Shown here: piece by piece, positions 45,701 to 64,000 of the stretch
Layout: each line of letters starts with the position of its first letter
Numbering within the stretch: position 1 is the stretch's first letter
Notes under the pieces: generated by a model
What the model saw: the letters and a program-made list of their open reading frames with translations, nothing else
What the model was told of the DNA's origin: nothing
Database searches by the model: none
Program-made: the position numbers and the translations under genes
IMG/VR virus record: IMGVR_UViG_3300025316_000011
Location: 1 to 64,000 of that record
DNA: 64,000 nt
Direction: 5' to 3' (one strand)
From: a virus

Positions 45701-48700
45701 GCAACCTCCGACATCTTCAATGTACGCAGGATGATATAATTTGATTCAGAAATAATGGCAACAGGGTCATATTGGATAATGAGTTTCTGTCTCATTGTCC
45801 CTTTCTCATATATGTTCTTTGCGGTAGCCATGTTCCCAAAGACTACTTTCCCCTCCATTTTGCCAATCAACTCACTGACGGGGATATACTTTGTCCTGCC
45901 GTCCTGGTTTTTACCCGTAACAGAATAAACTTTATAATCATCTCCCAACGGGATATTGTTGGATAATACCACAGGGTCATTTGAGAACTTACCCCGGCCT
46001 TCGGTGATTAAGTCTTTTAAGGCGGCATTATGATCTTCTGAAAGTCCTTTATGTGGTTGGTCAAGCATCATAAGATACCTGAACTTTTCAGGTAATTCTC
46101 CCGTCTCATTAACCGATTTCTCTATTTCGGCAAATGCCTTTTCTGATAACCGGCTCCCCGTGGATCTCTTTAACTGATCGAGAAATTCAGCTTTCTTTGC
46201 TCCGTCTTTAAATGTGAATCTGACGGATAGCACATCATTCATCGTCACCTTATTCCCTAACGGGTCGGTCATATCCTGACTACGCAGATACACCAATTCG
46301 GGATTAAAATAGGCTGAAAGTGCATGGATATGCTTTGTGATGTCCTGTTTGGTAGTATGATCTTCGGCAGATACATCGCTGCCAAAAGTGTAATGAGTGT
46401 AAGCGTATGATTCCCCTGTTTCAGCGAATGCCGAGGTTTTCCCCTTTGCTACCTTCCCTACGGGTTTGGGAACATATTTATCCCTGTGGTTAGTGTCAAT
46501 GTAGCTGATACCGCTTATATCCATTTTTGACGGCTTCAATAACGGGTCGTCAATGTTAATGGCTTTAACTTCTGCTTCTGTGTCAGCTACCACAACTTTC
46601 AACGATATCCCGTCTTTGCCTACCGATACTATACGGGCATATCCTTTTGGGTCAATGGTTTTAAATACATCTCCTGCCGTTGGTTTTACGGTAACAGGTA
46701 ATATCTGGTCGGGGTCAGTTTTTCCCTTTACAGGTTCTACGGGTTTTACCCCCGTAGTCTGATCTCCTGTAACAGTCCTTAGTCTGTCAATTTCCCTGTC
46801 GTAGTACCGTTTGAGCAGGTCGTCCGGCAGTTGGGCCGGAGTTTCAACCCATGAGACATCTTCTTTACGGCCTTTGTTGAGATCGTCAGCTTTTCTATCC
46901 GGGAGTGCGACAAAATCACTTGCTCTGCCGGTGGCGGTATAGTAATCTGCATCGTTGCCATTCCTCTCAAAGCCGATATATACCTTCTTAAAAATACTGC
47001 CACGTATGGATTTCGGAGTTTCGCCATTGTCTTGTATGTCTTTATCGAGAACGAAAATGTTAGGATTCTTCTTTTCTTCTTCCGTCAAATCTTCGTAATC
47101 CAACGGATTAAGGATAAGTGCCTTTTCCCCTGATGGGTCGGCATAAAAAGCATCAACAACACCTTTGGCATCTTTAAAATACTGGATACCATTACCGTTT
47201 TCATCTACAAATCCGTTTGGCATGGCATCACCTATACCCCTAAACACATCATGGAGTACATTTACCAATGGGTTGTTATTGTTCTTCCTTTCGGTAAGGG
47301 TTAATGACTTTGCTCCTACCTTTGAGATATTGTCCGTCCCCTGACGGATATCACCCAAAAACAGGATGGTCCCTGATTTACCAAAATGGTTTTTAATCAG
47401 GATAATGTCATTGTCTGATAACCGCTGTGATTCGTCAATAATGATATGGTCCGCACGTTTTACACGTTCGATAAGGTCGGGACTATTCAGTACGTCCTCT
47501 AACCGCAGATATTCAGGCTTAATGCCTGATAACCCTTCACCAAGCGATTTCTCATTGCCTACCGATACTCCAATGGCAACAACGTCTTTGGAAAATGGTT
47601 CTTCTGAATAGTACGAATGAAGGTCGTAAAGTCCTTTTAAGAATGATGTGCTTTTTCCCGTCCCGCTATCTCCACCGATAAAAATGGAGTTATCCATAAA
47701 GACACGGTTCATGGCATCAACTTCGGCCTGTATCCCTACCCCTTTCCATGTGGTAAGGTATTTGGATTCCGCTTCAACAACTTTACCGAGTATTTTGTGT
47801 GCATTGCCATTATCATTCACCATAAAGGAAAAGGCAAGGCTTTGCGCTCCCTGAATCAACGGGTCAACGCTTTCACCTGTTTCGGTAAATGCTTTAAGCC
47901 TTGCTAACTCCATGCTCTTTGCATGAACGCCAAAAGTCTCAATGAGTGAATTTATGGTGTTGATATAGCCTACGCTTGTCCCGCCTTTGCGCGTTAAATA
48001 ATCATCTCCCGGTTTTAACTGATACAGGGCATCAAGTGACGATTTGTATTCTTTGTTATCGTAAAATTGGGTATTCAGGTAGGTATCTTCAATACCCTGC
48101 ATGTGACGATGCAATACAAGGTCGCTAATAAATGCTTCAAATTCTGGACTGTCAATAATCTTGTCCTGTAACTCAAACAGTCTTGATTTTATCTCTACAA
48201 TCTGGCGGTTGGCTTCATGTAACTTTTTACGTTCCCCGTCAGATAAGGTATATTTCATTTCCTTCCATGCTTCGGGAATGGATGGAATAGCCTTTACCAA
48301 GTCATTATATTCCGGCATAACGGAAACAATACCCTGTGCTATATTTTCTAAATCCCGCTTCGCTTTGTCAATACCCTGGATAAAGTATTTGTCGTTGTGG
48401 TTGTTTAACTTACTTTCATTAAGATCATCATACAACCTTAATATCGAATAATACCTATTGAGTAAGTTCAAATGCTTATTTCCCTGATCTTCCGATAAGG
48501 TAATGTCGTTTGGGGATAAATGAGGTTTCAGTTCGTCTTTTGCGCCAAGCAGATAGGCTGACCGAACAATCATTTTATTCTTTTCTACCTTGTCTTGTAA
48601 ATCCTTAATCTTTTGACGGATAACGGTAGGTTCGGAAGTGTCGGAAAACGACATATTGCTAATGGATAACGGATTATCACTGGTAATATCGTTAGCAATA

Positions 48701-51426
48701 TCACCACTAAGCATGTCGCTGATAACCTTTTCCTTGTCGGTAGATAAAAGGTTCTGTTTGTTTTCAAATAAGTTTTCTGTGCCTTCGTATGCTTTGGATA
48801 ATCCGGCAACATAACCAACATCGGAATCGGAAAGTACGGGAGCAAACTTCTGCCTGTCTCCCGCCTCCGTAACCAATTTCCCCTTTAAGTCGAGAAATTC
48901 ATTTTGTAAGTCCAACTGCCGGGACATATCAATTTTACTTGATACATCATTTATCATCCCGGTAATCTTTCGTACACTGTTTAACCTTTCAACATCATCG
49001 GTTAATTTACCGGCACCCCTTATTTCTTCCCGTATCTGTTGGACAACGGGAGTTAATGCCTGTTCCTCTGATATAGCCTTCTGGTTGAACTCTTTTCTGC
49101 GGGCAATCTCTTTGTCCACATCGGTAGAGAAAACCTTACTTGCCTCATAGGAACGATTGAGGTTATCATCTTTCAGGTTAGCTTCAAACTTATCCCGCCA
49201 TGCTTTGGATTTACGGTTTTCTTCCGTTATGGGATTTGTGTTCCCTACCGAATTACGGTAATCTTCATCGGTTTTGTCAATCACCGCACCCAACGAGATA
49301 TGATTTGACTTTACAAGGTCGTTATATGCCTTGGAGAAATCCGTTCCGTCCTCTTTGGTGGTAATGTCTTTTATCCTTTGTTTGGCGGTTTCCTGCTGTT
49401 CCTGAATAGCTTTTATCTTTTCAGGGTCGGATTCCGTCTTTAATGCTTCATTCCCCGATTCAATGGTTTTGCCATTAACAATGACATCACGTAGTAACCC
49501 GATATTGTTACCAAAGTTTGACCTTATGGCAGGGTCGGCATACATATTGGAAATCTGATCGGTATATTGAAGTTCCTGAACAAACGCCTGATAACGGGAT
49601 TCATTTTCCGTCATGGCATCGCTGCCTTCGGTAATTGGGTTCCCGTCTTTGTCATGCGTTTCCCTGCCAAAGAAACTTTTATTCTTTAAGTCCTCCGATA
49701 TTTTCAGGGCATCCTGTGTCTTACCTGATGCAGAAATGTTCTCCATGGTAATGTCAGGCATCTTTGAAAACAGTCCCGGAGAATCAAAAGGTTTCCCCCT
49801 TAACGTCTCTACCCCTTTTCTTGCGGCACCTTCGATTGGAGAATAAAGTAATCCGCTGAAAAACCCACTGACGTAACTTGACATCATCTTATTCGGTAAG
49901 CGGTCAATTACGTTTGATATGAAACTCTTGTTGGCATCGTATTTATCAAACTGGCCTTTTCCCGGTGCTGCGTTTGGGTTCTTCGATAATGCACGTAAGT
50001 CATTTAATGTCTGTACCCCGGCTTCTACTGCTGTACCTGATGCCATCATGGTTCCCATCCCGTGTGCGCCAAGTAATAACTTCCCAACGGGTGTCCCGAT
50101 ACCTTTGACAAAACGAAGTTTAAGTTCAGGAGATAATAGAGCAAAATCAGTACCCCATTTAAGACCGTAACTTTTCATCTCGTTTGAAATGAGTTTAGTT
50201 GTCTGTGCCTTTAATTCGGCACCCATAAGTCCTTTCGATAAGAACGTTGGCCCCGTCATAAAAGCGGTTGCGCCAAAAGCGGGTCCGGCTAACATCACCT
50301 GCCATGCTAAATCAGCGGGGTCAACCCCATTTTCTTTTCCCGCTTCGGTATATGAATCCATCCCCATTCCGGTAAATAAGGCAAAGGTGGCGGCACCATG
50401 CGCTGATGCTTCCGCTGCCATCCCCGAACCAAACATACCTGATGCTTCCATTGCTCCCCCTGCACCACGGGTAAGCAGCACAATAGGGATAAGTGACCCT
50501 ATGGAATATGCTGCGGCTGAAAACGAAGAAAACATACTCCCCTGCGCTTCCATGCCAACGGGAATCTGACTACGTTTACTTAAATTCTGAAATACCCTGC
50601 CTTCACGTTCTAACCATGAGTTACTGTCTTTTCCCGTGGTCATAAAGTCAATGAACTTATTGCTCTGTTCCATGACGGAACCTACCATAGATTGAACACC
50701 TACAAGTCCATTATATACCCCTTTGAGTAGCGCACCATACCAGTTCTCCGTCATTGACTGCGGTCCCCATGAGGATGCTATCTGACTACGAAGGACCTTT
50801 GGGTCGTCTGCCGCCACGTTACGGTAAATGGAGTTTCCGTACTCATCCTGGTCTATGATACGTACCTTTGATGGGTCGTCTCCCTGTAACAACGGAGCCA
50901 ATGAAGGAATAAGTGGTGAACCAATGCCAATAGGGACATTGGCTAACTTCTGTAAAAACCCCGGAGGAGAGTAGGGTACTTTCTTCCCGTCGGTGTCAAC
51001 GACAAAACCTTTTGAAGCTGCCAACTCGTCACGGGTAGCGATAATCCTACCGTATTTGTCAACCCCTTCCGGCATCCCACCTGTGACGCTTTCATCGTAT
51101 TCGGGTGTCTTTAATTCAGGTTTGTCGTATTGCCAGAAAGGGGCTACGCTGCCATTGTATTTAGTGGTAGCATATCCTCCGTAGGAATCATGTGCCTTTT
51201 GGTAAACTTCGTGGAATTTGTCTTTAGTGATACCTTCGAGCATCCCTCCTTTTGAGGCATATTTCTCGAAAGACTTGTCCTCCGGCAAAAGGGTAAAAGT
51301 GTAACCATTTTCCCGTGCATGAGTAGCCATGTCCTCATGGGTAAAACCTCCGGCAAACATCGGGAGGAAATCTCTTTTTTCAACTTCTTTTTTTTCAGGA
51401 GTTATGGTAGGTTGAGTATCTTCCAC
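36772..51426 (-). CDS. 4884-aa giant polyvalent virion cargo/DNA-ejection protein
   Basis: N-terminal Gly/Ala hydrophobic helices; SF1 helicase motifs (GGDSGTGKST, IIIDESQ, LGDIRQ, YTATGRA); two HExxH motifs (HEFFH, HELQH); FYS...GVK.DEL...DEIQSDW module typical of polyvalent proteins. Confidence 0.85.
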   Translation of the reverse strand: MEDTQPTITPEKKEVEKRDFLPMFAGGFTHEDMATHARENGYTFTLLPEDKSFEKYASKGGMLEGITKDKFHEVYQKAHDSYGGYATTKYNGSVAPFWQYDKPELKTPEYDESVTGGMPEGVDKYGRIIATRDELAASKGFVVDTDGKKVPYSPPGFLQKLANVPIGIGSPLIPSLAPLLQGDDPSKVRIIDQDEYGNSIYRNVAADDPKVLRSQIASSWGPQSMTENWYGALLKGVYNGLVGVQSMVGSVMEQSNKFIDFMTTGKDSNSWLEREGRVFQNLSKRSQIPVGMEAQGSMFSSFSAAAYSIGSLIPIVLLTRGAGGAMEASGMFGSGMAAEASAHGAATFALFTGMGMDSYTEAGKENGVDPADLAWQVMLAGPAFGATAFMTGPTFLSKGLMGAELKAQTTKLISNEMKSYGLKWGTDFALLSPELKLRFVKGIGTPVGKLLLGAHGMGTMMASGTAVEAGVQTLNDLRALSKNPNAAPGKGQFDKYDANKSFISNVIDRLPNKMMSSYVSGFFSGLLYSPIEGAARKGVETLRGKPFDSPGLFSKMPDITMENISASGKTQDALKISEDLKNKSFFGRETHDKDGNPITEGSDAMTENESRYQAFVQELQYTDQISNMYADPAIRSNFGNNIGLLRDVIVNGKTIESGNEALKTESDPEKIKAIQEQQETAKQRIKDITTKEDGTDFSKAYNDLVKSNHISLGAVIDKTDEDYRNSVGNTNPITEENRKSKAWRDKFEANLKDDNLNRSYEASKVFSTDVDKEIARRKEFNQKAISEEQALTPVVQQIREEIRGAGKLTDDVERLNSVRKITGMINDVSSKIDMSRQLDLQNEFLDLKGKLVTEAGDRQKFAPVLSDSDVGYVAGLSKAYEGTENLFENKQNLLSTDKEKVISDMLSGDIANDITSDNPLSISNMSFSDTSEPTVIRQKIKDLQDKVEKNKMIVRSAYLLGAKDELKPHLSPNDITLSEDQGNKHLNLLNRYYSILRLYDDLNESKLNNHNDKYFIQGIDKAKRDLENIAQGIVSVMPEYNDLVKAIPSIPEAWKEMKYTLSDGERKKLHEANRQIVEIKSRLFELQDKIIDSPEFEAFISDLVLHRHMQGIEDTYLNTQFYDNKEYKSSLDALYQLKPGDDYLTRKGGTSVGYINTINSLIETFGVHAKSMELARLKAFTETGESVDPLIQGAQSLAFSFMVNDNGNAHKILGKVVEAESKYLTTWKGVGIQAEVDAMNRVFMDNSIFIGGDSGTGKSTSFLKGLYDLHSYYSEEPFSKDVVAIGVSVGNEKSLGEGLSGIKPEYLRLEDVLNSPDLIERVKRADHIIIDESQRLSDNDIILIKNHFGKSGTILFLGDIRQGTDNISKVGAKSLTLTERKNNNNPLVNVLHDVFRGIGDAMPNGFVDENGNGIQYFKDAKGVVDAFYADPSGEKALILNPLDYEDLTEEEKKNPNIFVLDKDIQDNGETPKSIRGSIFKKVYIGFERNGNDADYYTATGRASDFVALPDRKADDLNKGRKEDVSWVETPAQLPDDLLKRYYDREIDRLRTVTGDQTTGVKPVEPVKGKTDPDQILPVTVKPTAGDVFKTIDPKGYARIVSVGKDGISLKVVVADTEAEVKAINIDDPLLKPSKMDISGISYIDTNHRDKYVPKPVGKVAKGKTSAFAETGESYAYTHYTFGSDVSAEDHTTKQDITKHIHALSAYFNPELVYLRSQDMTDPLGNKVTMNDVLSVRFTFKDGAKKAEFLDQLKRSTGSRLSEKAFAEIEKSVNETGELPEKFRYLMMLDQPHKGLSEDHNAALKDLITEGRGKFSNDPVVLSNNIPLGDDYKVYSVTGKNQDGRTKYIPVSELIGKMEGKVVFGNMATAKNIYEKGTMRQKLIIQYDPVAIISESNYIILRTLKMSEVAAAEGKSIADILKAWKDTDTYLTQNGEMDGTMLFNFIHNNRAQFKNKEIGKIIGDFGKWEYDTAAAGYRLKLKKEFANKEGYAKMFDRIIERSSELGNVELPFDKAYGLSDILSGRAGTFLTNTLDLLPHTSVFINDIKPGEVVQAGPESNPPVTFGKGEGSAEEAINFVNQEKEKIKADKNEKVPAKEYKEFVDNNVVSDKRLNTIADKLFAGETLTTREQSIRAARTSEVESLLQDRKNDSENISEEQFPQWAVESKYATPNDLIAAYDQVVLTSQSGLQPWQERLEAEQFSYKSYVRFGDENTLKVEQKSGRKKGQFKKKHPIEKNWLLDKSNDTNLKGIDLFVNEENEGYNSNITPDDVIDFINSNPDKSVFKDKVPEIQKEISRKYKEKTGMSINEGKKRIKAAYAEIPDFATLDTFVKHNGIDISTATKEELLSSIEANKDQFQGFPFSEESYNNLYKYLSDEKTVLEVYPKSNLGNEGGAPADGNGEENGPIFEESRETDTRRISRETLNTWLDSNVHPDIAADIRESLDKHGIGFLNIDGKQVFGYLHNGRIRLEMQRDGIVYTSPKHEFFHMVYNYFLDEPSKGIIMNESKTAMKRYSPQWRGKKITDLQAEEWIAHYIGKTGIEKPFEKKEKSPWYTPKGIFQAFMDMVNKMFGRYQPDMKHIDNLIYDIDHGRFKDQMPDLSRKATRTELDPSKEVNKVLTNIEHHAMDEFGGGKPYHDLFLDRYFKKSIGEKAIDLNGTDYHLYSAKDRQEYVEGFDKYQSWLKGIADMPKNVAIGELEKIGVRNPGEFYDSITDNMFVRSFRGNSLISETDPKTVEFLQDEFKRLPEDLQSKYAYQILLTNGLESKQGSAINIIPKEFYDKPNGLHEQSTAFGRYLDGIGNDQNEYSRLSTEMKAYAGGEGYKRYPHGGFDSEKTTTDGTMSNTSTVKPLSPYLDVINGFYSPVEKAVLDIKAEKLTGNKWLEQLRSRGVKGDELTYTGLDDMLKANPSKTFSRGEIQQWMKDNRIDIREVSKGDNEVKLQEEYDLIINAKNAIFSRVERDSNYTHFADEIWGDVDHFIKNGGEKPTYIPEKAFDQLVKLELRNNEIRTKLTSKEEREKSQTKYSAYQLPGDKENYKEVLITLPPKEPTTDELQQMAFVQYNVPYDELNDAQQRNTRSYVLASRDFYYRSSHFDEHNILAHLRLSTRVDVNGKKVLFVDEIQSDWGQKGKKEGFKEPNSITELPTGFIVEPPTKFEDYWKITAPKGYDRATQDFVFDSGNTKEEAIKNALETLNKDANKSKHTHAPFVTETTAWTKLGLKVALKQAIKEGAESISWTTGEQQNERYDLSKKINEIHYSGSNLKAYDHDGNTVIERTGVQPKDLPDIIGKDVAEKLMAQEPKGTLRSLTGQDIKVGGKGMIGFYGSPAEGKLGIVGQVAEGLWGKGSVKTKDIGTKRLINENDFTDSFVVKSPHTGDYQLRAWNDDVLSTIPIDVGNQLSKEAIQKTLQEIAIESERKINGSTTQHSIDITPKMRDEVAQGLPLFQKPIDLNKIQDNRVVQQSFEILLDKIKGQFEQLNFIKEDSDSLREKGISPTARGYVDGQGIHYNIDKVTSSTGVHELQHIWNAVYKSRNPEKYAEFENYVKDAISQGGNDVAKLSEQIKITYPELDGQQHIDEVMATMGGFTSIPAVERFLRESDSKIPETDKTFATRIYENVKRYVTELWNGLKGILGLKDGFDIGNPDLEKFFKDFTNQVLKGDKFTFTPDEMKVIDKMGKAESRSAKMPVLDISDLTLHLASDHADSLRFSKLTPEEVTDEIFNEVKKTGVNARGNYYYNEGTHQTVFPADKYDTDEKLKEAIHNQVTPKYPMIDGKVPELIQNFISFANTPIGLSATHNSKQATISDIASTVGLKDYNPQVLKTLINLLGIEQGAMDVVRYSQLPEHADPRFRSLYKDDLKGYDPIVVVHGFDKNGKADVSIFDVTSYGQGTDAVIGRQRNILGDIMDDKKYRKLGGPAEYNDSMYSYRKLMIGMQALGMDATFRKLSVIETRKNSVKPYQVNSIEDIGKILDILKAQPEFMDMVGSITIRGIIQNKRIENDKLRTPFINQLSEYLSNQEEMMDPYEEFDTKRESVVARRDLLTKGSKQAKIKALTEWQRVLDHKIGSDTEKFADPIYQLVSATLDELKRPGTGFGHIETANQIADIKGGGLENIPSPLVQRSSFIQASAGAMQMSIERTVSAYWKYHEKIFPLLEKVVAQHGIKAQPFVGTAGNLYFDHLYKDMDVVAGKDLTYGGKSYKKGDKVTVRGTVLHMDKNDPETKPLYDKGKITDADLELTNAMYDEMRKRTIADIYWQHQFTEIGSEHDDLNISEFTWEDAEQQFNDMNSRAPKGHIPVIDKSANEMLMQGKFKEGLKKYFDNIQAPDQIFTDVTKDKSMTKLFSSINQQMLDPSKTHEKIGLVEVRDGNTSHFELFDPDLNEKASHDIEKIGNYFMLKGIRDEMIGNEFLPEYNTQMALMTGWENSNNVNLRHTREFMEEYFNRYVNKQNADKRDNGGTIDVPLIGPVETADVANTAMRGMTNILLMYRFVTAPKVLIAGAFKSTVNAIAQSAANIGMPEELRSEILPTMADHLKAAGKMFSNRRKVWAIARKFHYWNQTEDSLLHSPMENLSVKKNALSAAWGMLPDNSVDQTMRVHSLVSQLIHNGAWEAYSVDAKSGDLAWDRFKDKRYFNSDGSQSAKQKAMYNALTERLKSQGEMSDSDIIPDRGDDWDIVNNHYKWYASQFVYVGIDDATKALMTNGWKGKMVGMFRMFMMPHLNNLGVNAKTGETIGGGRWVPYLDEEGNTMTKWEMNIMEGHFQSWRHVIHDLRDFKNMKDPLKYWQSLPTHRRINLGRSLVYAGALAGLVYFIGTLTKKDQQKYSYLYSELMLGYASEEWMKNPIPILGTTLRLTEVGLGQKKFSVLAGTLGVYGGYKRAVALTTP

Positions 51427-55848: not shown

Positions 55849-58800
55849 TTAATCGTATGAGATGTCAAAGTCACTGATTACACTCTTTAACTCTATATCC
55901 TGATCTCCTTCATAGACAAGGGTTACTTTTATCCATATACCTCTTAATTCGCTTGTAGTCTCATAGGCATCATTGTCCGCCGATGTTTGTATAATGACCG
56001 GAACGTGCCATTTGTGTTCAAGGTATTCTGCTACGTTCCAAAAATCACTACTCCCAAAACTATAATATCCCTCTTGGTATTGTGTCGTAAAGGTAATGGA
56101 ACTTAACGGCACGTTAGCCATTTCAATATCGAGACTGTTGATAATCTTAACCAATTCGGCTGCGCTTTCCTTTTCAGATACCCCATTGATGATAAATGAT
56201 ATTTTCGTCTGCTGTTTGTTCCCAAAGAACGTAGCAAAGTTAGGTGTGCCGTCAGCCTTTACCTTTTGATTATACAGATACACCCTGTTATCGGTAATGT
56301 AGTCAAATCCTACCCCGATATTCTTATATCTGCTGTGTTGACTGAAAAGCATGTTCCCCAACGTCAGGTACAAATGCTCTGCAAAAGGGTAGTCCCCTCT
56401 ATACCCGTCAATCTTTTCGGAAAAGATAATGGTTCGCATCAAATGACCATTCTCATAGGTAGGGATAGGAAGTAAAAAGGTCATACCTATTTCTTCATTG
56501 TCAATGTCTGCATAGGCTACAATTCCGCACCCGGATAACGGATCATCCGGTAAATCATCGGAAGCGTCACGGTACGGAGAATAGGCATCCGAAAGTTTGG
56601 TAAGTTCATCCTGGATAAATGCCCTCCCTGATACATCTTCCATGACAAGCCTTGCACCTCCAGACAACATACGTTCGGTGTTTATCTTCCACCATACGTT
56701 TTGAATGAAGTCATATCCGTATGTCCCCCGCGTTCCGTTGGTAATAGAACTTTTATGCTGTGTGCCAAACCATCCTATCTTTTCTATTTTATCTGAAAAG
56801 AAGGTAAGCGATGTACCGAGAATTACGTCCTGCCCCTGATTGGTCTGCCCTACTACTTCTTCATTGAAAAATATCTGGTTAGTCCCGTTTCGTTGAACTA
56901 TAAAGGCTTTTGACATGTTCTTTCCAATGTAGTTTATGTCCCCGTCCTCAATGGCGAAATCCTGATATGAGTTATCCTGAATTGACCTGTACCCGTCAAG
57001 GAATGCCCCCGCAATATGAGCATCAGAAGCGTAAACCCTGTTTGGTTTGTTCTGTTCAAAGACAGGCTGCGTTACATCGTAACCCTTATAAGTCTTATCT
57101 GACTTTACCTTGTTATACCCACTGTTGATCTGTAAGGCTTCTTCCATGTATTTCCCGGCTTCAATGGCAATAAATTGGTCAATGGTTATTCCGTCCACCA
57201 TGCACTTAGGGAAAAAGGTGTATTCGAGGTATTTGTCGGTAGTATTAGCGGCAATGACGTTATTCCTCATTCCGGCATTATACCTACATTCGACGGTAAC
57301 GCCAATCATAAAGCCATGCTGATACCAATAACAGTTCTTGTCAATGAAGTTACGGGCGTATCCGTCCTGCGTGCTACTGCAAATACTATTTTGAGCATCG
57401 CTATTGTTGTTGTGCGAAATATTGTACCACCTGTGGGTCCTGAACCATACCTTCTGAAGAAAACAATCCCCTTTAAAGCACTGATACATGCTACTGAAAT
57501 TGTTTATATCATCAAATGTCACAAGTTCAGATATGATATTATATTGAGTAAAGGTAGTCCCAAAAGAATCATTGGTAGCCTTTATCCAATCAGAATCCAT
57601 AGTGTTTTTATATACGCTGACAATGCAGGTTCTTTCTTGGTTGTTGTTGTAATTGTAAGGTGATGAAGGGTTGTATTTTGCGTATAAACCTCTCATGGTT
57701 TTGTCCGTCGAAATATCCTCAACTCCTATATAGGCGGAAGTACCAATATCCCGGTTCCAAATGTGAGAAAATGCTACAAATCCTATGTTCACTCCGTCAC
57801 CCGTAAGGTGTGAAGTGAAATTAAGATTTCCTTTACCCTGTAAATGTTCTACCCTTGTTGCACTTACCTTTATATCATCAGAGGAAATAAGATCATCAGC
57901 CAACGATATTGCGTTAGCCGCTGCCATTGGGTTAAGGTCTATCCCGTAGATAGAACTCGAAGCCTTACTTGTGCGGGGTAATACCTTTCTCGCTGCTGTA
58001 ATGATATATGGGTTTTCACCCGAAGGAGTAACGGCATCGAACTTAAACAATGGTTTGACCACTGCATTTGTCGGGACAATAATACCACCTTCATCAAACA
58101 GTAGGTCGGGGCAAAAGATACCATGTTTGTTCCCGTATGGATTAGGGGAGTTAAACATACTCTCTGTATATGCCCCTGCGATGTTATCCCACCGTGCAGG
58201 GAGGGTAATCTGATGTTTAGATGCTTCCACTATCCCACTGAAATTATAGGCAAAATACCCGTCAAATCCGGTAGGCTTGTAGTCCATACGTGGTGAAGGA
58301 GGGGTATGTGCTCCATAATCATCGGTGTAACCATAATAGGCATCAACATCTTCATGGACAGTAGGCATATATCCCCGGTAAAGCGGGATGATAGCTGCGG
58401 TCAATGGAAAGAATGTAGTAGTGTTGTTGGCGATATTATGTGTGTCAGGTTGAATGTCTCCTTGAAATGAACATGGGTAGCTTCTGTTTTCATCTGTTAC
58501 AGCAACACCATGATAACCATGTAATGATACTCCTTGACAGATAAAGTTGTCTATCCGGTCCGCCCTTGCAAAGTAAAAGCCCACAATGTCGGCAAAGTCA
58601 GTCTTATGATTGTTGTAGTAATCCCTTGCGTAAGCGGTCATAAAAGATACCCCTGTAATCCTATCCTGCTTTGGAAATGTACTACCTCCATACATGGATG
58701 CAGTAGCCCAATCTGCGAACTTATAAAGCCCCTTTTCGGTCAACTGACCAAGATTCCCCTGGCATGGGAACGCTTCTGAAATAGTCCCGTCAGAAAACTT

Positions 58801-60099
58801 GAAAACACATGCAAAAGGATATACCTGATCTTTGAAATAACCTACGTACTTATATACGTTTTCCGACACCGAATAGGCTGTTAACCCTCCGTTGACGGCA
58901 TCATTGATATTTGTTGAAGCAAAATATTCATCATGGTAAAATTCACCTATTACGACCTTGCTGGCAAAGGATATAAGACTATCCCTTTTATAACTCAACG
59001 CTGACCGTTTCACGTTAGCCTTTAAAAGACGTTTCTCTATCTGTGTTTGAGTTTTAGAGATAGGATAAGGGAATGGTTCTTTTAGTATTTCTGTGTATAA
59101 CAGGCTTTCCTGTGGCTCGTCACCGTAAATGGAAAATTGACTTGACGTGCCGGAAATAGGATAGTAGTTTCCGATAAGCCATATATCCCGTTGTGCGGGG
59201 CCATTCTCCGTTGTGGCACTATAACGGACAACTCCTACCTGAATATAGGAAAAATTAGGATCGAGATTGTCAATGTTTACGTCAATCCTTTTGTTGGTCA
59301 CATTGTCTATACCCGTAGTCCAGTTCTTTTCCTGATAACCTACATGGTACTTAGGGACATTCCCAACATCAATGCTCAGCGGTCCTATCTCTTTTACGAA
59401 ATTTGTTTTCCCGTAATTATAGGTGAGATAGCGGATATACAGGTATATGTTCCCCGGCTTTAAATACCCTCCATCAACAACCTGAACATCGTTTACCTTT
59501 ATCTCCTTATTAGTGAATGGAACATGGTTTAATGCCCCGTCAAAGTTACTTAAATACACATAACGGGGTACGGATTCCCCCGTCACCTTAAATCCATTAT
59601 TGATTACCCTGTCGGGATTGTAGTTATCAATGAAATACAGGTCAACGGTGTTGTCGTAAGACTTTTTAGCAACGACATCGACCTGGTGGTGTATGCTGAA
59701 ATTGAATTTTGTAGTCCTTAACGGAAATGGACCATACGGCGGAGCATTCCCAGCTACGGGCATCCCTCCCCCTAAATTTAGCAACGGGAAATAGTATTTA
59801 CTGAAACCTGCCGTTGCCCTGTTTGGAGTAGGATATGTCCCTATCTCTCCTTCTCCCGTAAGTTGATTTAAGGAAAAGATATAAGCCACTCCTTCAAGTT
59901 CACAACCCCCGATGATTTCAAAGCCTTCGGTAATATCAAAAAATTCCACGTTCCCCGGAACAACGGTAGCAATAAGTCCCTTCCCTGCTTTATTGAATAC
60001 CCTTATTCCAACGGTAGGAAATACAATGATGTCTCCCTTAATGTCGGATACGTCAATGTCTGATATTATGTTCCCCGAAAACTTATTTATCTGCTTCAT
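55849..60099 (-). CDS. tail stabilisation/muzzle protein (crAss-like)
   Basis: 1416 aa; N.FSG...D.D start, LYFIDNYNPDRVIN, GYFKDQVYPF, FKGDCF, FGTQHKSS, ELRGIWIKV C-terminus. Confidence 0.8.
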   Translation of the reverse strand: MKQINKFSGNIISDIDVSDIKGDIIVFPTVGIRVFNKAGKGLIATVVPGNVEFFDITEGFEIIGGCELEGVAYIFSLNQLTGEGEIGTYPTPNRATAGFSKYYFPLLNLGGGMPVAGNAPPYGPFPLRTTKFNFSIHHQVDVVAKKSYDNTVDLYFIDNYNPDRVINNGFKVTGESVPRYVYLSNFDGALNHVPFTNKEIKVNDVQVVDGGYLKPGNIYLYIRYLTYNYGKTNFVKEIGPLSIDVGNVPKYHVGYQEKNWTTGIDNVTNKRIDVNIDNLDPNFSYIQVGVVRYSATTENGPAQRDIWLIGNYYPISGTSSQFSIYGDEPQESLLYTEILKEPFPYPISKTQTQIEKRLLKANVKRSALSYKRDSLISFASKVVIGEFYHDEYFASTNINDAVNGGLTAYSVSENVYKYVGYFKDQVYPFACVFKFSDGTISEAFPCQGNLGQLTEKGLYKFADWATASMYGGSTFPKQDRITGVSFMTAYARDYYNNHKTDFADIVGFYFARADRIDNFICQGVSLHGYHGVAVTDENRSYPCSFQGDIQPDTHNIANNTTTFFPLTAAIIPLYRGYMPTVHEDVDAYYGYTDDYGAHTPPSPRMDYKPTGFDGYFAYNFSGIVEASKHQITLPARWDNIAGAYTESMFNSPNPYGNKHGIFCPDLLFDEGGIIVPTNAVVKPLFKFDAVTPSGENPYIITAARKVLPRTSKASSSIYGIDLNPMAAANAISLADDLISSDDIKVSATRVEHLQGKGNLNFTSHLTGDGVNIGFVAFSHIWNRDIGTSAYIGVEDISTDKTMRGLYAKYNPSSPYNYNNNQERTCIVSVYKNTMDSDWIKATNDSFGTTFTQYNIISELVTFDDINNFSSMYQCFKGDCFLQKVWFRTHRWYNISHNNNSDAQNSICSSTQDGYARNFIDKNCYWYQHGFMIGVTVECRYNAGMRNNVIAANTTDKYLEYTFFPKCMVDGITIDQFIAIEAGKYMEEALQINSGYNKVKSDKTYKGYDVTQPVFEQNKPNRVYASDAHIAGAFLDGYRSIQDNSYQDFAIEDGDINYIGKNMSKAFIVQRNGTNQIFFNEEVVGQTNQGQDVILGTSLTFFSDKIEKIGWFGTQHKSSITNGTRGTYGYDFIQNVWWKINTERMLSGGARLVMEDVSGRAFIQDELTKLSDAYSPYRDASDDLPDDPLSGCGIVAYADIDNEEIGMTFLLPIPTYENGHLMRTIIFSEKIDGYRGDYPFAEHLYLTLGNMLFSQHSRYKNIGVGFDYITDNRVYLYNQKVKADGTPNFATFFGNKQQTKISFIINGVSEKESAAELVKIINSLDIEMANVPLSSITFTTQYQEGYYSFGSSDFWNVAEYLEHKWHVPVIIQTSADNDAYETTSELRGIWIKVTLVYEGDQDIELKSVISDFDISYD

Positions 60100-61481
60100 C
60101 TTGTGATAGTCTTTAGGAAACGATTAACTTTTGCAGGGACTACTATGGGTTCGGGTTTCTTTTCTTCGGGTTCCTTTTCTGGTTCTTTTGCCGGTGCCGT
60201 CGGTTTATCTGAATAGAAGTTTACACCAAGTTTATCCATCAACTCAATATGGTCAAAAACTTCATCGAGTTTGTCACTCGGAAAGTCCAAATGTCTTGTT
60301 TTAACATCGCCGATTATCCCTTTTACATTCTCAATAGCTTCTTCAAGTGTGTTTCCGCAAGCGACTACCGCACCAATTTCCTGTAATTTATATGGTTGTG
60401 GAATTACCCTTGGAACTCCGTCAATGACAACGTAGTTTTTAAGGAAAACGTTGTTCCGGTACTTTTCATGTATTTCGACGGAAATAAAATGATCTTCTGA
60501 AAATTCAGAATGGATGATAACCTGAACACCAAACTTGTACTTGGTTATAGGTTCCACAATTTGTCCCATTCCCAATCCCATGTAAATATCGGCAATGTTC
60601 TCATACATATACTGCATAAGTTCTACCGGAGGATGTGGCATTCTGCATGTTGAATCAATAAAATAAGGTTTTTTCTCTTTACCGTACCGGATTTCGGTTG
60701 AAAAGTGTTGTTGGTATCCAACTGCGGAAAAGGCTTCGGTAAATGCCGTGTTAATAACCTTAATAGGTTCAGGAACGTCTTTTATGTTGATAAACTTTGC
60801 CGTATAGGAACAGTCCTTTGTCTCAATACCACAAAGCATATTTTCGGCAAATTTACCCCCTGCGAAGAAAGTGTCACACCCAAATTCAACCATATCATCA
60901 TCCCCAATCGGGTCCTGTACGAGAAATTCAATCTGTTCACGTAAGTCACCTAACCTGTAAGAAATATCATCCAATTCACTTGCTGAAATCCTTTCGTTGA
61001 TATACTGCATGGTTTCAGTAATGCCACGGAGATTTGATATTTTGATAAACTTCTTCTCCTTGTCTTTAAGGTACTCCCGTAACTTAGTTATGCCTTTAAT
61101 TGGAGTAAAGTCATTAACGGGTAATCCTTTTGATTTAAGGAACTCTTGTAAATAACTACGGTCAAGTTCAAACTTTTTGCCGTAGAATGAAGAAACAACG
61201 TGTTTCCCTATTTTCCGTAAATGGTCGGCTAAGTCTCCATCATAAACATCGGTAAATATGATAAGGTCCACCGTCTCATTATCTATAACCTTCCATAAGT
61301 CCTCAACCTTCTCAACTCCCGGAATGCCTACCCCAATGAATCGTGGATTATAGTCAGGAAATCCCGATTGTGTCCAAGGTGTAAAGTAATACACCTTTTT
61401 GAACTTAGGAACAAGTAAACGGGCAAGTTCACAACTCGACCCGTTATCATAAATCAACACAACCGCTTCTTTCGTTATCAT
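60096..61481 (-). CDS. ATP-grasp ligase, PurD (phosphoribosylamine-glycine ligase)-like
   Basis: FELDR...KGLP, FIKIS, FLVQDPI...EFGCD, FSTEIR...YFIDSTCRMPHP, C-terminal IGAVVACGNTLEEA. Confidence 0.8.
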   Translation of the reverse strand: MITKEAVVLIYDNGSSCELARLLVPKFKKVYYFTPWTQSGFPDYNPRFIGVGIPGVEKVEDLWKVIDNETVDLIIFTDVYDGDLADHLRKIGKHVVSSFYGKKFELDRSYLQEFLKSKGLPVNDFTPIKGITKLREYLKDKEKKFIKISNLRGITETMQYINERISASELDDISYRLGDLREQIEFLVQDPIGDDDMVEFGCDTFFAGGKFAENMLCGIETKDCSYTAKFINIKDVPEPIKVINTAFTEAFSAVGYQQHFSTEIRYGKEKKPYFIDSTCRMPHPPVELMQYMYENIADIYMGLGMGQIVEPITKYKFGVQVIIHSEFSEDHFISVEIHEKYRNNVFLKNYVVIDGVPRVIPQPYKLQEIGAVVACGNTLEEAIENVKGIIGDVKTRHLDFPSDKLDEVFDHIELMDKLGVNFYSDKPTAPAKEPEKEPEEKKPEPIVVPAKVNRFLKTITR

Positions 61482-61873
61482 AAGGTCATTACAGTTTCAT
61501 TGTGGCCATTCCATGAAATCCCCATAAATCCGCAAAGCATCATTTCGATAGAAGTAGCAAGTGCGTGCATGTTCATATATGGACACCTTGGATCAAAACC
61601 AGGTTCATCAATATCGCTATGAAGCCATTCTTCTCGTTCCTTTTCGTAAGCAAGATCAAAGTCCATTATATCCTGTTCTTTAATCTTATAAAAATCTGTA
61701 GTAATCCATTCCGCAAGTTCATGCAAAGCCACAAGGCAATTATTTACTGTATGCGGCATCTTGGACACCCGGATTTGTAAAGTATCTCCTTCAATCCAAT
61801 AGTCCCCACACGTTGAGTAACGCTGACTTTCGTGAGGGATGAACTCAATATTTATCCGGTTGATTTCTGTCAT
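61478..61873 (-). CDS. putative metallopeptidase-like protein (HExxE...H)
   Basis: IPH..QRY.TCGDY, VALHELAE, EPG.DP.CPY...HALAT.IE. Confidence 0.55.
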   Translation of the reverse strand: MTEINRINIEFIPHESQRYSTCGDYWIEGDTLQIRVSKMPHTVNNCLVALHELAEWITTDFYKIKEQDIMDFDLAYEKEREEWLHSDIDEPGFDPRCPYMNMHALATSIEMMLCGFMGISWNGHNETVMTL

Positions 61874-62205
61874 TGCTGCGGTTCATTTTCAGGTTGTCCC
61901 GGCTGCTGACCCTGCTGACCTCCACCTTGGCTGAATACCCCCACGATCATCTGTACCAGCTTTTTCACATCGTCAGGCTGTTTGATACTCATGTTACCAA
62001 GCGGTTGAGACTGACCATTAGCATTCACCGCAATGGTTACATCAACGGATATGCCCCCGCCCTGCCCCGGCTGTTGACCCTGTGTAGGTCCACCTTGTCC
62101 CGGCTGCATAGGCTGTTGTCCCCCCTGCGGAGCCGACATATCGGCATTTACCAATCCATTAGCGGCACAATTCTTAGATTTCTTTTTAGTGGTTTTGTAT
62201 TTCAT
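61870..62205 (-). CDS. small protein with a basic N-terminus and Gln/Gly/Pro-rich repeats
   Basis: MKYKTTKKKSKN...QGGQQPMQPGQGG; part of ORF 61870..62286 with ATG at 62205. Confidence 0.7.
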   Translation of the reverse strand: MKYKTTKKKSKNCAANGLVNADMSAPQGGQQPMQPGQGGPTQGQQPGQGGGISVDVTIAVNANGQSQPLGNMSIKQPDDVKKLVQMIVGVFSQGGGQQGQQPGQPENEPQQ

Positions 62206-62209
62206 GGTG

Positions 62210-63514
62210 TTACATTTTAAAAAGGTTGCTGACAAAATTAACGTCCCCGGCAAGGTCTGGCTTGTTGTATAACTGCATCCAATCATCCATGTTTGGGGTG
62301 TCCTGCTCTATGCCTTCCCCTGCTGATCGTGTGCCTGTTGTTGGTGTCTTTGGTAATGGCTTGTTTAAACTTGGCAAAGTGGTCCGCTGAACCGGGAATA
62401 AAGTAGTTTTCCCCGGTATCTCCAACTCCCTGTTTGACTTCTGATAACTTGTCATATCAGCCAACGAAGGAGTTAGATTCTGCGGTAATCCCGGTGGGGT
62501 CATTTTGGATTTGTATGACGGGTCAAACCATCTCCTTATTTCCCCTACCGTTATCTGCTGATCTTTGTCAACGTCAATGGCAGGGTTTAATTTGGCTAAC
62601 TTTGCTCTTGATTGTTGGTCCGTCCCAATAGCGTAATCATCCGATTTACCTAATGCAGCGGGATACATATTCGCTATGTAAAGGTCCGATGGTTGTTTTA
62701 TCTTGTCTTTATACTGGTTCCAATATTTAAAGGCAAAAGGCAACTGCTCGGATGCTGTCATGTGCCGCAGTTCTTCGGCAGAAGTCCCCATAGCTTTTGC
62801 CGTGGAATCAATCATCTGAACGATACCGCTTGCGGACCCATGTGGATTATGTGCGGAGGAATCACCACCGCTTTCGATATGAATAAGCCTGTTAACCCAA
62901 TCCTTGTTTATCCCTGATTTCTTGGATAAAGATTCGAGGACGGAGTTAAATTCAGGATCATCCATTGCTTGATGTTTTACACCACCAGCGGCAAATACTT
63001 TTCTTGGTTGATCGTCAGCGGCAGAATATGGGTCCATTAAGGCGGTGCTTGCTCCACCACTTGCATTCTTAATCCCATTCTTACCTTTGGGACTTTGCAT
63101 TTTATATTTAAACTGTTGTTTATCCCCTAACTCACTCCATGTAGGATTATCAATAATAGTATCATTTGATCCTTTTTTACGATATTCCCTAACGTCCCCG
63201 AAATTAACACCTTTTGCTGATGAAGGATATTCTCTCATTTCTGCACCCGGACCCATTGGCACCCATTCATAAGGTGTTGGGACCATGCTTTTCATTGGAT
63301 GCCTTAACAACGTATTGTTATTGGATGAGGGGATTCCTGTTGATAGAATAGGCTGCATTGGGATTAATGAGTTTGATGATAAATCAATATCATTAACAAT
63401 CCCACCCGCTGCTTTATGCGAAGAATATTTTGCCCCGCCAATCTGCCTTTTTTTGGCATTTAGCAGGTCCATCCGGTTTCCGGTAGTGCTTTTCTTGCGT
63501 TTATGGGAGTACAT
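62210..63514 (-). CDS. lytic transglycosylase (SLT/lysozyme-like) domain protein with disordered flanks
   Basis: LIHIESGGD..AHN...ASGIVQMIDSTA...EQL; NPAIDVDKDQQIT. Confidence 0.85.
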   Translation of the reverse strand: MYSHKRKKSTTGNRMDLLNAKKRQIGGAKYSSHKAAGGIVNDIDLSSNSLIPMQPILSTGIPSSNNNTLLRHPMKSMVPTPYEWVPMGPGAEMREYPSSAKGVNFGDVREYRKKGSNDTIIDNPTWSELGDKQQFKYKMQSPKGKNGIKNASGGASTALMDPYSAADDQPRKVFAAGGVKHQAMDDPEFNSVLESLSKKSGINKDWVNRLIHIESGGDSSAHNPHGSASGIVQMIDSTAKAMGTSAEELRHMTASEQLPFAFKYWNQYKDKIKQPSDLYIANMYPAALGKSDDYAIGTDQQSRAKLAKLNPAIDVDKDQQITVGEIRRWFDPSYKSKMTPPGLPQNLTPSLADMTSYQKSNRELEIPGKTTLFPVQRTTLPSLNKPLPKTPTTGTRSAGEGIEQDTPNMDDWMQLYNKPDLAGDVNFVSNLFKM

Positions 63515-64000
63515 GCCTTACGTGGTGTTTTACTTCATCCGACAATAACCATAACTTAGCGGGTTGAGGAAATTCATCAAAGGTAATCTTCATCTCCTGG
63601 TTAAGTTCATCCCGTGTCTTAAACTGTAACGAGTAACATTGTGCTGCCAATATCTCGTTTTCTTTGTTCAACTTTACTTCCTGCCAAAAGTTAGCATTGA
63701 TTTTTCCCGTCCCGAAGTCTGAAAACAACGCATTATACACACAGAACCATTCACATGCTAATTCGTGACCACGTTGTATTAACGGCTCCCCCGTTTCCAT
63801 GTCAATAGGGGACCCGTAGTAGTCGATTAACGGGTTGGTGACTTTATCCCTTGGGTTGAAGATTAAGTATGAGCCTAAGTCGTTAAACTTAACTCTACCA
63901 CCATTCCCGTGGCTGCCATGTTCGGTATAAACATCAACGATACGGTAAGTATTACACGGGACCCGCGCTTTATCGTTATAAACCTTTAACGGGACTTGTG
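63501..64000 (-). CDS. tail ring (tubular) protein, 5' end outside the window
   Basis: Frame is open to the window edge (...ARVPCNTYRI...IDYYGSPIDMETGEPLI...ACEWF); motif and position match crAss-like ring proteins. Confidence 0.65.
   Translation of the reverse strand, partial: QVPLKVYNDKARVPCNTYRIVDVYTEHGSHGNGGRVKFNDLGSYLIFNPRDKVTNPLIDYYGSPIDMETGEPLIQRGHELACEWFCVYNALFSDFGTGKINANFWQEVKLNKENEILAAQCYSLQFKTRDELNQEMKITFDEFPQPAKLWLLSDEVKHHVRHVLP

Follow-up and report, generated by a model that had tools for sequence, protein, structure and literature searches.

Several described systems pair an ATP-grasp enzyme that forms an amide with a hydrolase that undoes or edits its product, such as TTLL and CCP on tubulin, glutathionylspermidine synthetase and amidase, or VanA and VanX. 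Here, we analyse a viral gene pair that may be compared with these systems and that encodes an ATP-grasp enzyme (hereafter, AG) and a putative metal hydrolase with an HExxE motif (hereafter, HE). Both genes are found in a stretch of 64,000 nucleotides (nt) of viral DNA, referred to below as the window, which corresponds to positions 1 to 64,000 of the IMG/VR record IMGVR_UViG_3300025316_000011 (full record, 81 kilobases (kb); CheckV completeness, 64%). The comparison has its limits, however: the described pairs belong to other ATP-grasp branches and other hydrolase folds, and in the present case the hydrolase is dispensable in many genomes.

AG and HE constitute a mobile ligase-hydrolase module that is observed in either gene order, usually with overlapping stop and start codons, in the head, portal and ejected-protein operons of unrelated tailed phages. 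In the phage of the window, the module and two lineage-specific genes, one for a protein with an SLT domain and another for a Q/G-rich protein (QG), are located between the ring-1-like and muzzle genes and beside cargo genes. To explain this arrangement, we infer that AG transfers an acyl group to a virion-internal or ejected protein and that HE edits the result, a proposal to which we would give a probability of roughly 40%.

The association between both genes was analysed in two sets of 80 viral loci, one fetched from AG and the other from HE. The first-pass annotation of the window had proposed a writer/eraser pair and had set the genomic linkage of the ligase and the HExxE protein in other phages, beforehand, as a refutation test. 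Such linkage was indeed found: HE was present in 33 of the 80 loci fetched from AG, on the same strand in 32 of them and overlapping AG or at most 100 nt away from it in 31, while AG was located within 4 kb in 46 of the 80 loci fetched from HE (same strand, 45/46; overlapping or at most 40 nt apart, 41/46). Both gene orders were found in each set; in the first one, HE was upstream of AG in nine loci and downstream in 24. The remainder of each record was also considered. HE was present elsewhere in one of the 47 AG records without an adjacent HE, while a match to the AG profile was present elsewhere in 18 of the 33 HE records without a nearby AG (and in nine of the 11 such records that are at least 90% complete). 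Ten of these 18 distant matches were strong (E ≤ 1e-125) and eight were weak; six of the weak ones were inspected, and all of them were PurD-like ATP-grasp proteins of about 440 amino acids (aa), with E values between 1e-8 and 1e-17. HE seems, then, to need a PurD-like ATP-grasp enzyme in the genome, while AG does not seem to need HE.

Two further observations concern these ATP-grasp genes. The six inspected weak matches form a second viral clade of PurD-like ATP-grasp proteins, of about 440 aa, characterised by an E-x-T-x-R-[FL]-G motif and, mostly, by a GPN(T/C)G loop (L169-L174, from records G069, G065, G061, G073, G068 and G079). It occurs in HE-bearing genomes that lack the main AG family and is a sister viral clade closer to PurD. 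Additionally, the ATP-grasp match of four virus records (G050, G052, G053 and G056) contains one in-frame TAA, for which a broken gene, recoding or a sequencing error are possible explanations.

The genomic setting of AG is always morphogenetic, and four arrangements are recurrently observed. In some loci, AG is found between the genes for the large terminase subunit (Terminase_3, E = 1.1e-6) and a P22-like portal protein (E = 9e-82). In others, it lies between the genes for a 740-aa protein and for an acidic, coiled-coil, scaffold-like protein of about 400 aa, which is followed by that of a 562-aa protein; these proteins have no family match and the roles assigned to them are guesses. In a third arrangement, the gene directly before AG encodes a protein of about 1,900 aa whose N-terminus is a PBECR5 nuclease domain (E = 3.2e-22); “polyvalent” proteins of this type are presumably packaged and injected. 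Finally, AG is found two genes after the portal gene in a Thermocrinis virus, where a lytic transglycosylase is also encoded nearby and where the genes beside AG are not HE. Pfam and PHROG scans returned nothing for most of the recurrent neighbours (clusters c2, c4, c5, c6, c7 and c9, and the giant proteins described below). Homologues of the muzzle, ring, SLT and Q/G-rich proteins of the window were found in none of the 80 AG loci (blastp, E = 1e-3), which indicates that the module has moved between unrelated phages. The context of virion morphogenesis that had been proposed from the window is, thus, observed well beyond crAss phages, in head, portal and ejected-protein operons.

AG also has sequence elements in common with the products of neighbouring genes. 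A domain of about 100 aa (PAI..GK.Y.G..DSH...GF..DG.FL.R..A..WL....GLHS) constitutes the N-terminus of six members of the AG family (including those of L054, L056, L070, L072 and L074) and is also found inside giant proteins of 1,272-1,474 aa, the genes of which immediately precede HE or AG in four loci (L166/L167, 1-3996; L114, 180-3998; L067, 1580-6004). One of these giants is weakly similar to DarB-like antirestriction proteins (E = 7.7e-6). In 24 loci of the terminase-portal group, AG and two to four adjacent small open reading frames (ORFs; 53-149 aa) have a common motif near their C-termini, G-[KRM]-I-S-[DEP]-[KR]-x-[FMA]-x-K, which is present at the end of AG itself in 17 loci (e.g., L018, 1403-4742; L025, 3563-8125; L030, 102-2429). 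Among 5,692 ORFs, the pattern was matched 63 times, 62 of them within the 24 loci, a count that was made without a shuffle control. The motif common to AG and the small ORFs looks like a docking or recognition peptide.

The description of the ligase as a PurD-like ATP-grasp enzyme, already made in the first-pass annotation, is borne out by profile and structure comparisons, but not by Pfam, as AG has no match to any Pfam or PHROG family (in the case of Pfam, even at E ≤ 1). The AlphaFold (AF2) model of AG (predicted local distance difference test (pLDDT), 90.2; predicted template modelling score, 0.86) contains four PurD-type domains, spanning residues 1 to about 420, and ends in a P/E/K-rich linker of low confidence (residues ~427-443) and a short helix (450-460); this C-terminal tail of linker and short conserved helix is characteristic of the AG of the window and its closest relatives. 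When a family profile built from a 20-member alignment was compared with the PDB, PurD was the best match (2yw2, E = 5.8e-8), followed by three further PurD entries (1e-4 to 6e-4) and PurK (0.12). In a Foldseek search with the model, at least 500 matches were obtained at E ≤ 0.001 and all the listed ones were ATP-grasp enzymes, with PurD entries at the top (E of about 1e-19; template modelling (TM) scores of 0.70/0.75 to 2yw2) and PurT, biotin carboxylases and PurK after them. Likewise, the best 13 VIA-align matches were all PurD entries (Z = 26.5-30.3; 365-382 aligned residues), in which residues 1-413 of AG cover residues 1 to about 423 of the chain, while PurT, PurK and biotin carboxylase scored between 22 and 24.4. 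The overall fold of these last three is that of AG, but they remain 2-6 Z units below PurD and have profile E values of 0.12 or worse; additionally, no carboxylase partner genes are found near AG.

The residues expected in an active ATP-grasp enzyme are strongly conserved. Among 115 distinct sequences of the AG family, E105 and R280 are kept in all, and K147, R152, E220, K222, E263, D276, P284 and N295 in 114. In an hhalign alignment with E. coli PurD, which spans 354 columns at 19% identity and has a low probability (the template being a single sequence), E105 and R108 fall on the Glu and Lys of LEGSK, K147 on the Lys of IKADG, and D276 and R280 on the Glu and Arg of the PurD E-x-N-x-R loop. 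AG has, therefore, the characteristics by which ATP-grasp enzymes are recognised: the fold, the Lys of the central domain (K147) and two acids (E263 and D276) before the catalytic Arg (R280). An acid is presumably also present at the position of E263 in biotin carboxylase-type enzymes. By contrast, the Asn of the E-x-N-x-R loop, a Mg ligand, is replaced at position 278 of AG by T (58 sequences), C (54), A (2) or S (1), and is never found in the 115 sequences.

In four loci (L071, 4296-6674; L080, 5779-8157; L090, 4399-6726; L079, 1-1836), the D-x-|C-x-R catalytic loop of AG is interrupted by a probable intein. The insert, of about 345 aa, starts with Cys and ends with Asn, which is followed by Cys; in L071, the break is located between D-x and C-x-R. 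Sub-threshold matches to Intein_splicing and LAGLIDADG_3 suggest an intein with a homing endonuclease. Inteins are typically placed in the catalytic motifs of proteins that must work, so that an insert in the catalytic loop offers further circumstantial support for an active AG. AG is a virus-specific ATP-grasp enzyme that derives from PurD and is almost certainly active.

The family belongs to a large clade found only in viruses. The Atlas clusters nearest to AG, with 51 to 1,438 members, are 96-100% viral, and cellular PurD appears only at TM scores of 0.72-0.77. Isolate relatives were found in only three Aquificae or Thermocrinis virus records among 50,697 phage records (tblastn with AG and two relatives), and the full module is carried by no isolate. 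One Atlas lead pointed to Pfam T4_Y16D (PF26092), and the AG profile finds no match in phage T4. A BFVD search with the AG model returned only remote ATP-grasp proteins (query TM score of at most 0.45) and no close named viral relative. In a FastTree phylogeny of the 115 sequences (LG model, midpoint rooting), limited to those that cover at least 350 model positions, the genes linked to HE are spread over most of the tip order, and the AG of the window groups with relatives from ENA, beside loci linked to HE.

The motif of HE, H51-E52-x-x-E55, is real and conserved, as the first-pass annotation had supposed of the HExxE...H pattern: all 35 aligned members of the family have H51, E55, D73, Y99, H103 and E110, while at least 90% of them have E52 (Ala in one member). 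The AF2 model (pLDDT, 94.1) consists of three strands, a helix that carries H51, E52 and E55, and three more helices, with D73, Y99, H103 and E110 placed on the later helices; the assigned elements are strands at residues 6-12, 23-28 and 31-37, and helices at 42-61, 66-81 and 100-117. No match was found in PHROG, or in Pfam at E ≤ 1, Peptidase_M78 (PF06114) included. When 1.84 billion proteins were searched with a profile of the 35 members, 1,863 cluster representatives were retrieved (E ≤ 1e-3); the family is virus-only. Most members are stand-alone proteins of 120-140 aa, and a few carry an N-terminal HNH endonuclease domain.

The proteins that most resemble HE are minimal zincins and ImmA/IrrE-type peptidases, such as selecase (4qhf), abylysin (4jiu), PprI (8sln) and CapP (7t5t), which are also small and have a sheet followed by an H-E-x-x-(ligand) helix, with candidate ligands on later helices. 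About 17 of the best 25 VIA matches of HE are zinc peptidases or zincin-like hydrolases, judging by the entry names; among them are selecase (Z = 5.2), PprI (4.8), CapP (4.8), lugdulysin (4.7) and abylysin (4.5), as well as YbeY and SPRTN. The nearest named Atlas clusters are Peptidase_M78, with TM scores of 0.53 and 0.50. Nevertheless, the values for minimal zincins and M78 (Z of 4.5-5.2 over 79-90 residues; TM of 0.50-0.53) lie in the range where the tool is uninformative, and HE differs from these proteins in having HExxE instead of HExxH, in its lack of a Pfam match and in forming a family of its own, virus-only and with at least 1,863 clusters. From the model and the conserved residues, HE is a probable zincin-like metal hydrolase in which Glu would replace the second His of HExxH and H103 would be a further ligand. 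The earlier term “metallopeptidase” is not supported beyond a weak, though consistent, zincin-like resemblance (Z up to 5.3, TM of about 0.5), and the motif is not HExxH.

Two candidate relationships of HE were discarded. A comparison of its profile with PDB sequences yielded a single row at chance level (E = 1.6), and a single-sequence match to two engineered proteins (E = 3.6e-5, residues 14-48) was not reproduced with the profile.

In nine loci (L003, 7250-7951; L005, L006, L009, L021, L027, L028, L055 and L077), HE is fused to a C-terminal Erv1/Alr sulfhydryl oxidase, in proteins of 233-236 aa. The Pfam match is above the cut-off (E = 1.8e-7) in L003, the sole one scanned, and the others have the same C-terminal sequence. 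We know of no tailed phages from which the Erv1/Alr family has been described. Disulfide-stabilised tail parts are mentioned in the PhicrAss001 paper. Additionally, in L071 (7108-7395) and L080 (8582-8869), HE is immediately followed by a 95-aa ORF with HEALH or HESLH, which may be a second, classical mini-zincin.

In the window, the module is part of a run of four translationally coupled ORFs on the minus strand, with the ring-1-like gene on one side and the muzzle gene on the other:

63501..64000, minus strand: ring-1-like gene, of which the 3′ part lies in the window; upstream border (full gene, G000, 63501-64166, 221 aa)
62210..63514, minus strand: SLT-domain protein, 434 aa (Pfam SLT, E = 8.9e-5; PHROG)
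61870..62205, minus strand: Q/G-rich protein (QG), 111 aa (a longer ORF of 138 aa reaches 62286)
61478..61873, minus strand: HE, 131 aa, putative zincin-like metal hydrolase (family alignments, AF2 model, adjacency to AG)
60096..61481, minus strand: AG, 461-aa ATP-grasp enzyme (PDB profile, AF2, Foldseek, VIA, residue conservation)
55849..60099, minus strand: gene for the muzzle protein, 1416 aa; downstream border (Pfam crAss_MUZ, E = 1.7e-6; its start overlaps the AG stop, ATGA)

The tight coupling of the four genes that had been noticed at first is confirmed by ATGA overlaps at three junctions (QG/HE, HE/AG and AG/muzzle); on the other side, the SLT stop is separated by 4 nt from the ATG of QG, and the SLT start overlaps the end of the ring gene by 14 nt. 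The placement between ring and muzzle genes also holds, although both family matches are slightly below the Pfam cut-off of 27 bits: the full upstream protein matches CrAss_Ring_1 with E = 4.6e-6 and 26.7 bits (E = 0.052 for the part inside the window), and the downstream protein matches crAss_MUZ with 26.9 bits. The match to Crass_capsid is clear (E = 3.7e-20, 72.2 bits) and indicates that the phage is crAss-like. In PhicrAss001, gp43 (ring-1) and gp44 (muzzle) are consecutive genes, with cargo and RNA-polymerase genes after them (PMC10172136), so that the four genes of the window are extra at the ring-1/muzzle position. Neither AG nor HE was found in the muzzle neighbourhood of MT835470, another crAss-like phage (26% identity), which is consistent with an insertion as far as a single, distant comparison goes. 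Close relatives of the muzzle protein were not found in viral contigs, and GenBank gave two weak matches. Around one weak muzzle match (L087; MT835492.1, 90750-116063), few long ORFs are seen under translation table 11, which may reflect stop-codon reassignment, a phenomenon known for some crAss-like phages. Furthermore, a single ORF of 4,884 aa is located at 36772-51426 of the window (minus strand), downstream of the cargo-like genes.

The presence of an SLT domain in the 434-aa protein is confirmed by a Pfam match above the gathering score (22.5 bits, cut-off of 21.3; residues 196-250) and by PHROG matches to lysozyme-bearing tail families (phrog_4928, E = 1.3e-21; phrog_196, “baseplate hub”, E = 2e-21). 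Its translation includes “IHIESGGD...GIVQM”, which we take to be the catalytic Glu-Ser motif of family-1 lytic transglycosylases. The domain is central (residues ~185-340), with long flanks on both sides for which no family match was found. SLT domains are known from longer virion-operon proteins, namely T7 gp16, an internal protein of the phage, and PHROG 196; compared with them, the protein of the window differs in its size and in its unmatched flanks. No such protein is described for PhicrAss001, as the word “transglycosylase” does not appear in its paper (PMC10172136). All in all, the SLT protein is probably a virion or ejected protein that cuts peptidoglycan.

As for QG, ATG 62205 is most likely its start, because both homologues, of 111 and 110 aa, align from that Met. 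The protein begins with a basic stretch (MKYKTTKKKSK), contains linkers rich in Q, G and P, and keeps a conserved core of some 40 residues (GGGISVDV...SIKQPDD.KKLVQMI); it has no Pfam or PHROG match and only two homologues among 5.8 billion clusters (95% identity for the 111-aa one and 62% for the 110-aa one). Part of the core, G-N-M-S-I-K-Q-P-D-D-V-K-K-L, loosely resembles the G-x-I-S-x-K...K motif found elsewhere in AG and small ORFs, although this is an impression only. Considering that no SLT or QG homologue was found in the 80 AG loci, both must be seen as lineage-specific neighbours and not as conserved components of the module. Consequently, the suggestion of the first-pass annotation that QG could be a substrate or tag of the enzymes is not sustained for the module in general, and the SLT protein is not a conserved link between the module and peptidoglycan either. 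QG would be, at best, a lineage-specific client.

In the explanation that we favour, AG would use ATP to turn a carboxylate, by descent most likely that of a small glycine-like acid, into an acyl-phosphate, and would then join it to an amine other than phosphoribosylamine. The acceptor amine would most likely be carried by a virion-internal or ejected protein, or be bound for one, and would be acylated either in the course of morphogenesis or once AG has been delivered together with the cargo. HE would be a metal hydrolase that depends on AG and that prepares, trims or undoes the linkage made by it, while the SLT protein would act independently as a peptidoglycan-cutting virion or ejected protein. 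A more specific form of this proposal, possible but rather doubtful, is that AG itself is associated with the virion, with terminal docking elements that bring it to the procapsid, the portal or the compartment of the cargo, and that it aminoacylates or amidates internal or ejected proteins or is injected against a host target, with HE in an editing role. The docking elements would be the common C-terminal motif, the common N-terminal domain and, in the window, the tail of linker and helix.

Several points weigh against acyl transfer to virion or ejected proteins. Gene position is circumstantial as evidence of function. The linkage counts come from two sets of loci that have some contigs in common, and are therefore not independent. 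To our knowledge, the enzymes of the PurD/PurT/PurK/biotin-carboxylase branch all act on small molecules, and the ATP-grasp enzymes that modify proteins (RimK, TTL and LysX) belong to other branches. AG works without HE: 13 of the 14 near-complete AG records (at least 90%) that lack an adjacent HE lack any HE, so that the symmetry implied by a writer and its eraser is doubtful, even if HE depends on an ATP-grasp enzyme. The hydrolase assignment has its own difficulties, as the HExxE motif departs from the HExxH that defines zincins, as a Foldseek search against the PDB found nothing at E ≤ 0.001 (ACE/ACE2, SPRTN, PprI and lethal factor appear at E of about 1), and as the best Z obtained by VIA against 48,161 chains was 5.3, with an unrelated allergen in first place. 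Finally, there are genes and domains that point to metabolism. An AdoMet-decarboxylase-like gene (AdoMet_dc, S-adenosylmethionine decarboxylase, of the pyruvoyl type) is found directly upstream of AG in 20 of the 80 loci (e.g., L031, 5561-5986; L030, 385-780), and one AG has an N-terminus similar to HAD phosphatases (HAD_PNKP-like, E = 0.0065).

These last observations bring us to an alternative in which AG would ligate a small acid to a free amine, such as a polyamine or some other product of decarboxylation, to produce a metabolite for DNA condensation and packaging or for host takeover, while HE would hydrolyse a precursor or the product. The AdoMet_dc-like genes are located between the terminase and portal genes, the two that were scanned have Pfam E values of 4.7e-17 and 2e-5, and the Glu-Ser self-cleavage site is kept in the sequences listed; in the tree, the AGs that follow them occupy 24 adjacent tips as a single block. 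Together with the HAD-like N-terminus, they fit small-molecule chemistry, in which, for instance, an amine made by decarboxylation is then acylated. The same is suggested by the nature of the closest structural relatives (PurD, PurT, PurK and biotin carboxylase), all of them small-molecule enzymes, and by the conservation of R280 and E220 at positions that may match the glycine-binding Arg287 and Asp212 of PurD (PMC8880213). Nevertheless, AdoMet_dc was not matched in the 81-kb record of the window, and a metabolite would leave unexplained the constant embedding of AG in head, portal and ejected-protein operons, the terminal motif and domain that AG has in common with virion-type neighbours, and the fusion of HE to a sulfhydryl oxidase. 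We consider this alternative possible, if somewhat unlikely. The original idea, in which a writer-eraser pair would cross-link or tag proteins of the virion or cargo, with QG as its substrate or tag, is quite improbable. It would agree with the tightly coupled QG-HE-AG order and its ATGA overlaps, with a Q/G-rich gene that is real and conserved in the closest relatives, and with the small ORFs that bear the C-terminal motif of AG in another clade, as if small clients were a recurrent theme; however, QG is missing from the 80 AG loci, has only two homologues in a large protein collection, and no result ties it physically or chemically to AG or HE. The small ORFs could also be read as precursors of ribosomally synthesised and post-translationally modified peptides, in which AG would make side-chain amide or ester cross-links in the style of graspetides and HE would be the leader protease. 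In 24 loci, several such ORFs beside AG end in a motif rich in Ser, Asp/Glu and Lys, and a protease-like partner is at hand in HE. Yet in 17 loci AG itself ends in the motif, as would be expected of a docking signal rather than of a precursor core, the clade that bears the motif is the very one that mostly lacks HE, and graspetide ligases belong to the RimK-like branch and not to that of PurD, so that we see this as highly improbable. Even less credible is that the ligase and the hydrolase act together with the SLT protein to remodel the peptidoglycan of the host, or precursors of it, in a manner similar to VanA and VanX. The SLT gene is indeed two genes upstream in the same operon, and a lytic transglycosylase is encoded near AG in the Thermocrinis virus; on the other hand, no SLT homologue accompanies AG in the 80 loci by blastp, and AG is nearer to PurD than to D-Ala-D-Ala ligases, no Ddl being found among the best 50 matches of either Foldseek or VIA.

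There remains the function under which such viral genes are usually annotated, that of an auxiliary purine gene for a true, if divergent, glycinamide ribonucleotide (GAR) synthetase. PurD is, after all, the best match of AG in sequence and structure over its full length, the N, B, A and C domains of both proteins align, and equivalents of E105, R108 (for Lys), K147, D276 and R280 are present in PurD. GARS_A is found in 32-42% of the members of some neighbouring Atlas clusters, and GenBank entries for relatives bear the names phosphoribosylamine-glycine ligase or phosphoribosylaminoimidazole carboxylase. In a survey of vent viruses, PurD is among the purine-metabolism proteins of the viral protein clusters (PMC12043954). 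Even so, the identity between PurD and AG is 12-17%, and AG, unlike PurD, has no match to the Pfam families GARS_N, GARS_A and GARS_C at E ≤ 1; in the whole 81-kb record, GARS_A is not matched even at E ≤ 10, while 14 of 14 control genomes do match. The GGREH loop of PurD (N-terminal GNGGREHA) is V-x-D-x-G-x-f-x-E-l-A in the AG family consensus, GDPE is (S/H)-P-P, the loop Asn is lost, and no counterpart of the GPNTGG(MG) loop follows K222-D223, where the alignment indicates an apparent deletion. The GGREH and GPNTGG loops, both visible in the sequence of E. coli PurD, are what we take to be the signatures of this enzyme. The substrate site offers a mixed picture, as, of the residues that bind glycine in A. 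aeolicus PurD (Asp212, Arg287 and Glu292; PMC8880213), only Arg287 is certainly kept (R280). Glu292, in GDPE, aligns with P285 of AG, two residues before E287, which is Glu in 84 of 115 sequences, and Asp212 may correspond to E220, an equivalence that derives from strand order and not from hhalign, whose alignment is unreliable there. The first-pass annotation had also observed that no other purine-pathway gene accompanied the ligase, and the two other purine families searched, AIRS and SAICAR_synt, are indeed unmatched in the 81-kb record (64% complete). AG differs from PurD, additionally, in being a virus-only gene of structural operons, with HE as a partner and an extra C-terminal linker and helix, and its coupling to HE and its placement in structural operons in 80 loci are not what would be expected of a host-derived metabolic gene. 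The loss of PurD motifs and the coupling to HE thus support the early view of a ligase other than an ordinary purine enzyme; judging by its sequence, AG is not a PurD orthologue, and it is very unlikely to be a GAR synthetase.

Literature searches found no description of the AG-HE module, the supplementary gene tables and the 2009 amidoligase survey (Iyer et al.) being outside their scope, so that what we have here is a known enzyme class within an undescribed, widespread viral module. Viral genes of the AG type are now labelled PurD, PurK, “biotin carboxylase family” or hypothetical, and the vent-virus survey (PMC12043954) assigns viral PurD annotations to purine metabolism. The large virus-only clade described here argues for something else, that is, an ATP-dependent ligase in head, portal and cargo operons with a dependent metallohydrolase-like partner. 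It is unlikely that AG is a purine enzyme, and the module probably serves virion assembly or delivery, not purine synthesis. Either way, with its invariant residues and recurrent partners, the module lends itself to concrete and cheap expression and assay experiments. If AG makes a small molecule, phages would have a new metabolite pathway with a link to packaging. If the docking and protein-modification explanation is true, tailed phages would have a new and widespread system of post-translational modification whose scaffold, of the PurD type, is so far known from small-molecule metabolism only. And, if AG modifies virion or injected proteins, it would add a new layer of phage morphogenesis or host takeover, extending from crAss-like gut phages to the Aquificae viruses of hot springs.

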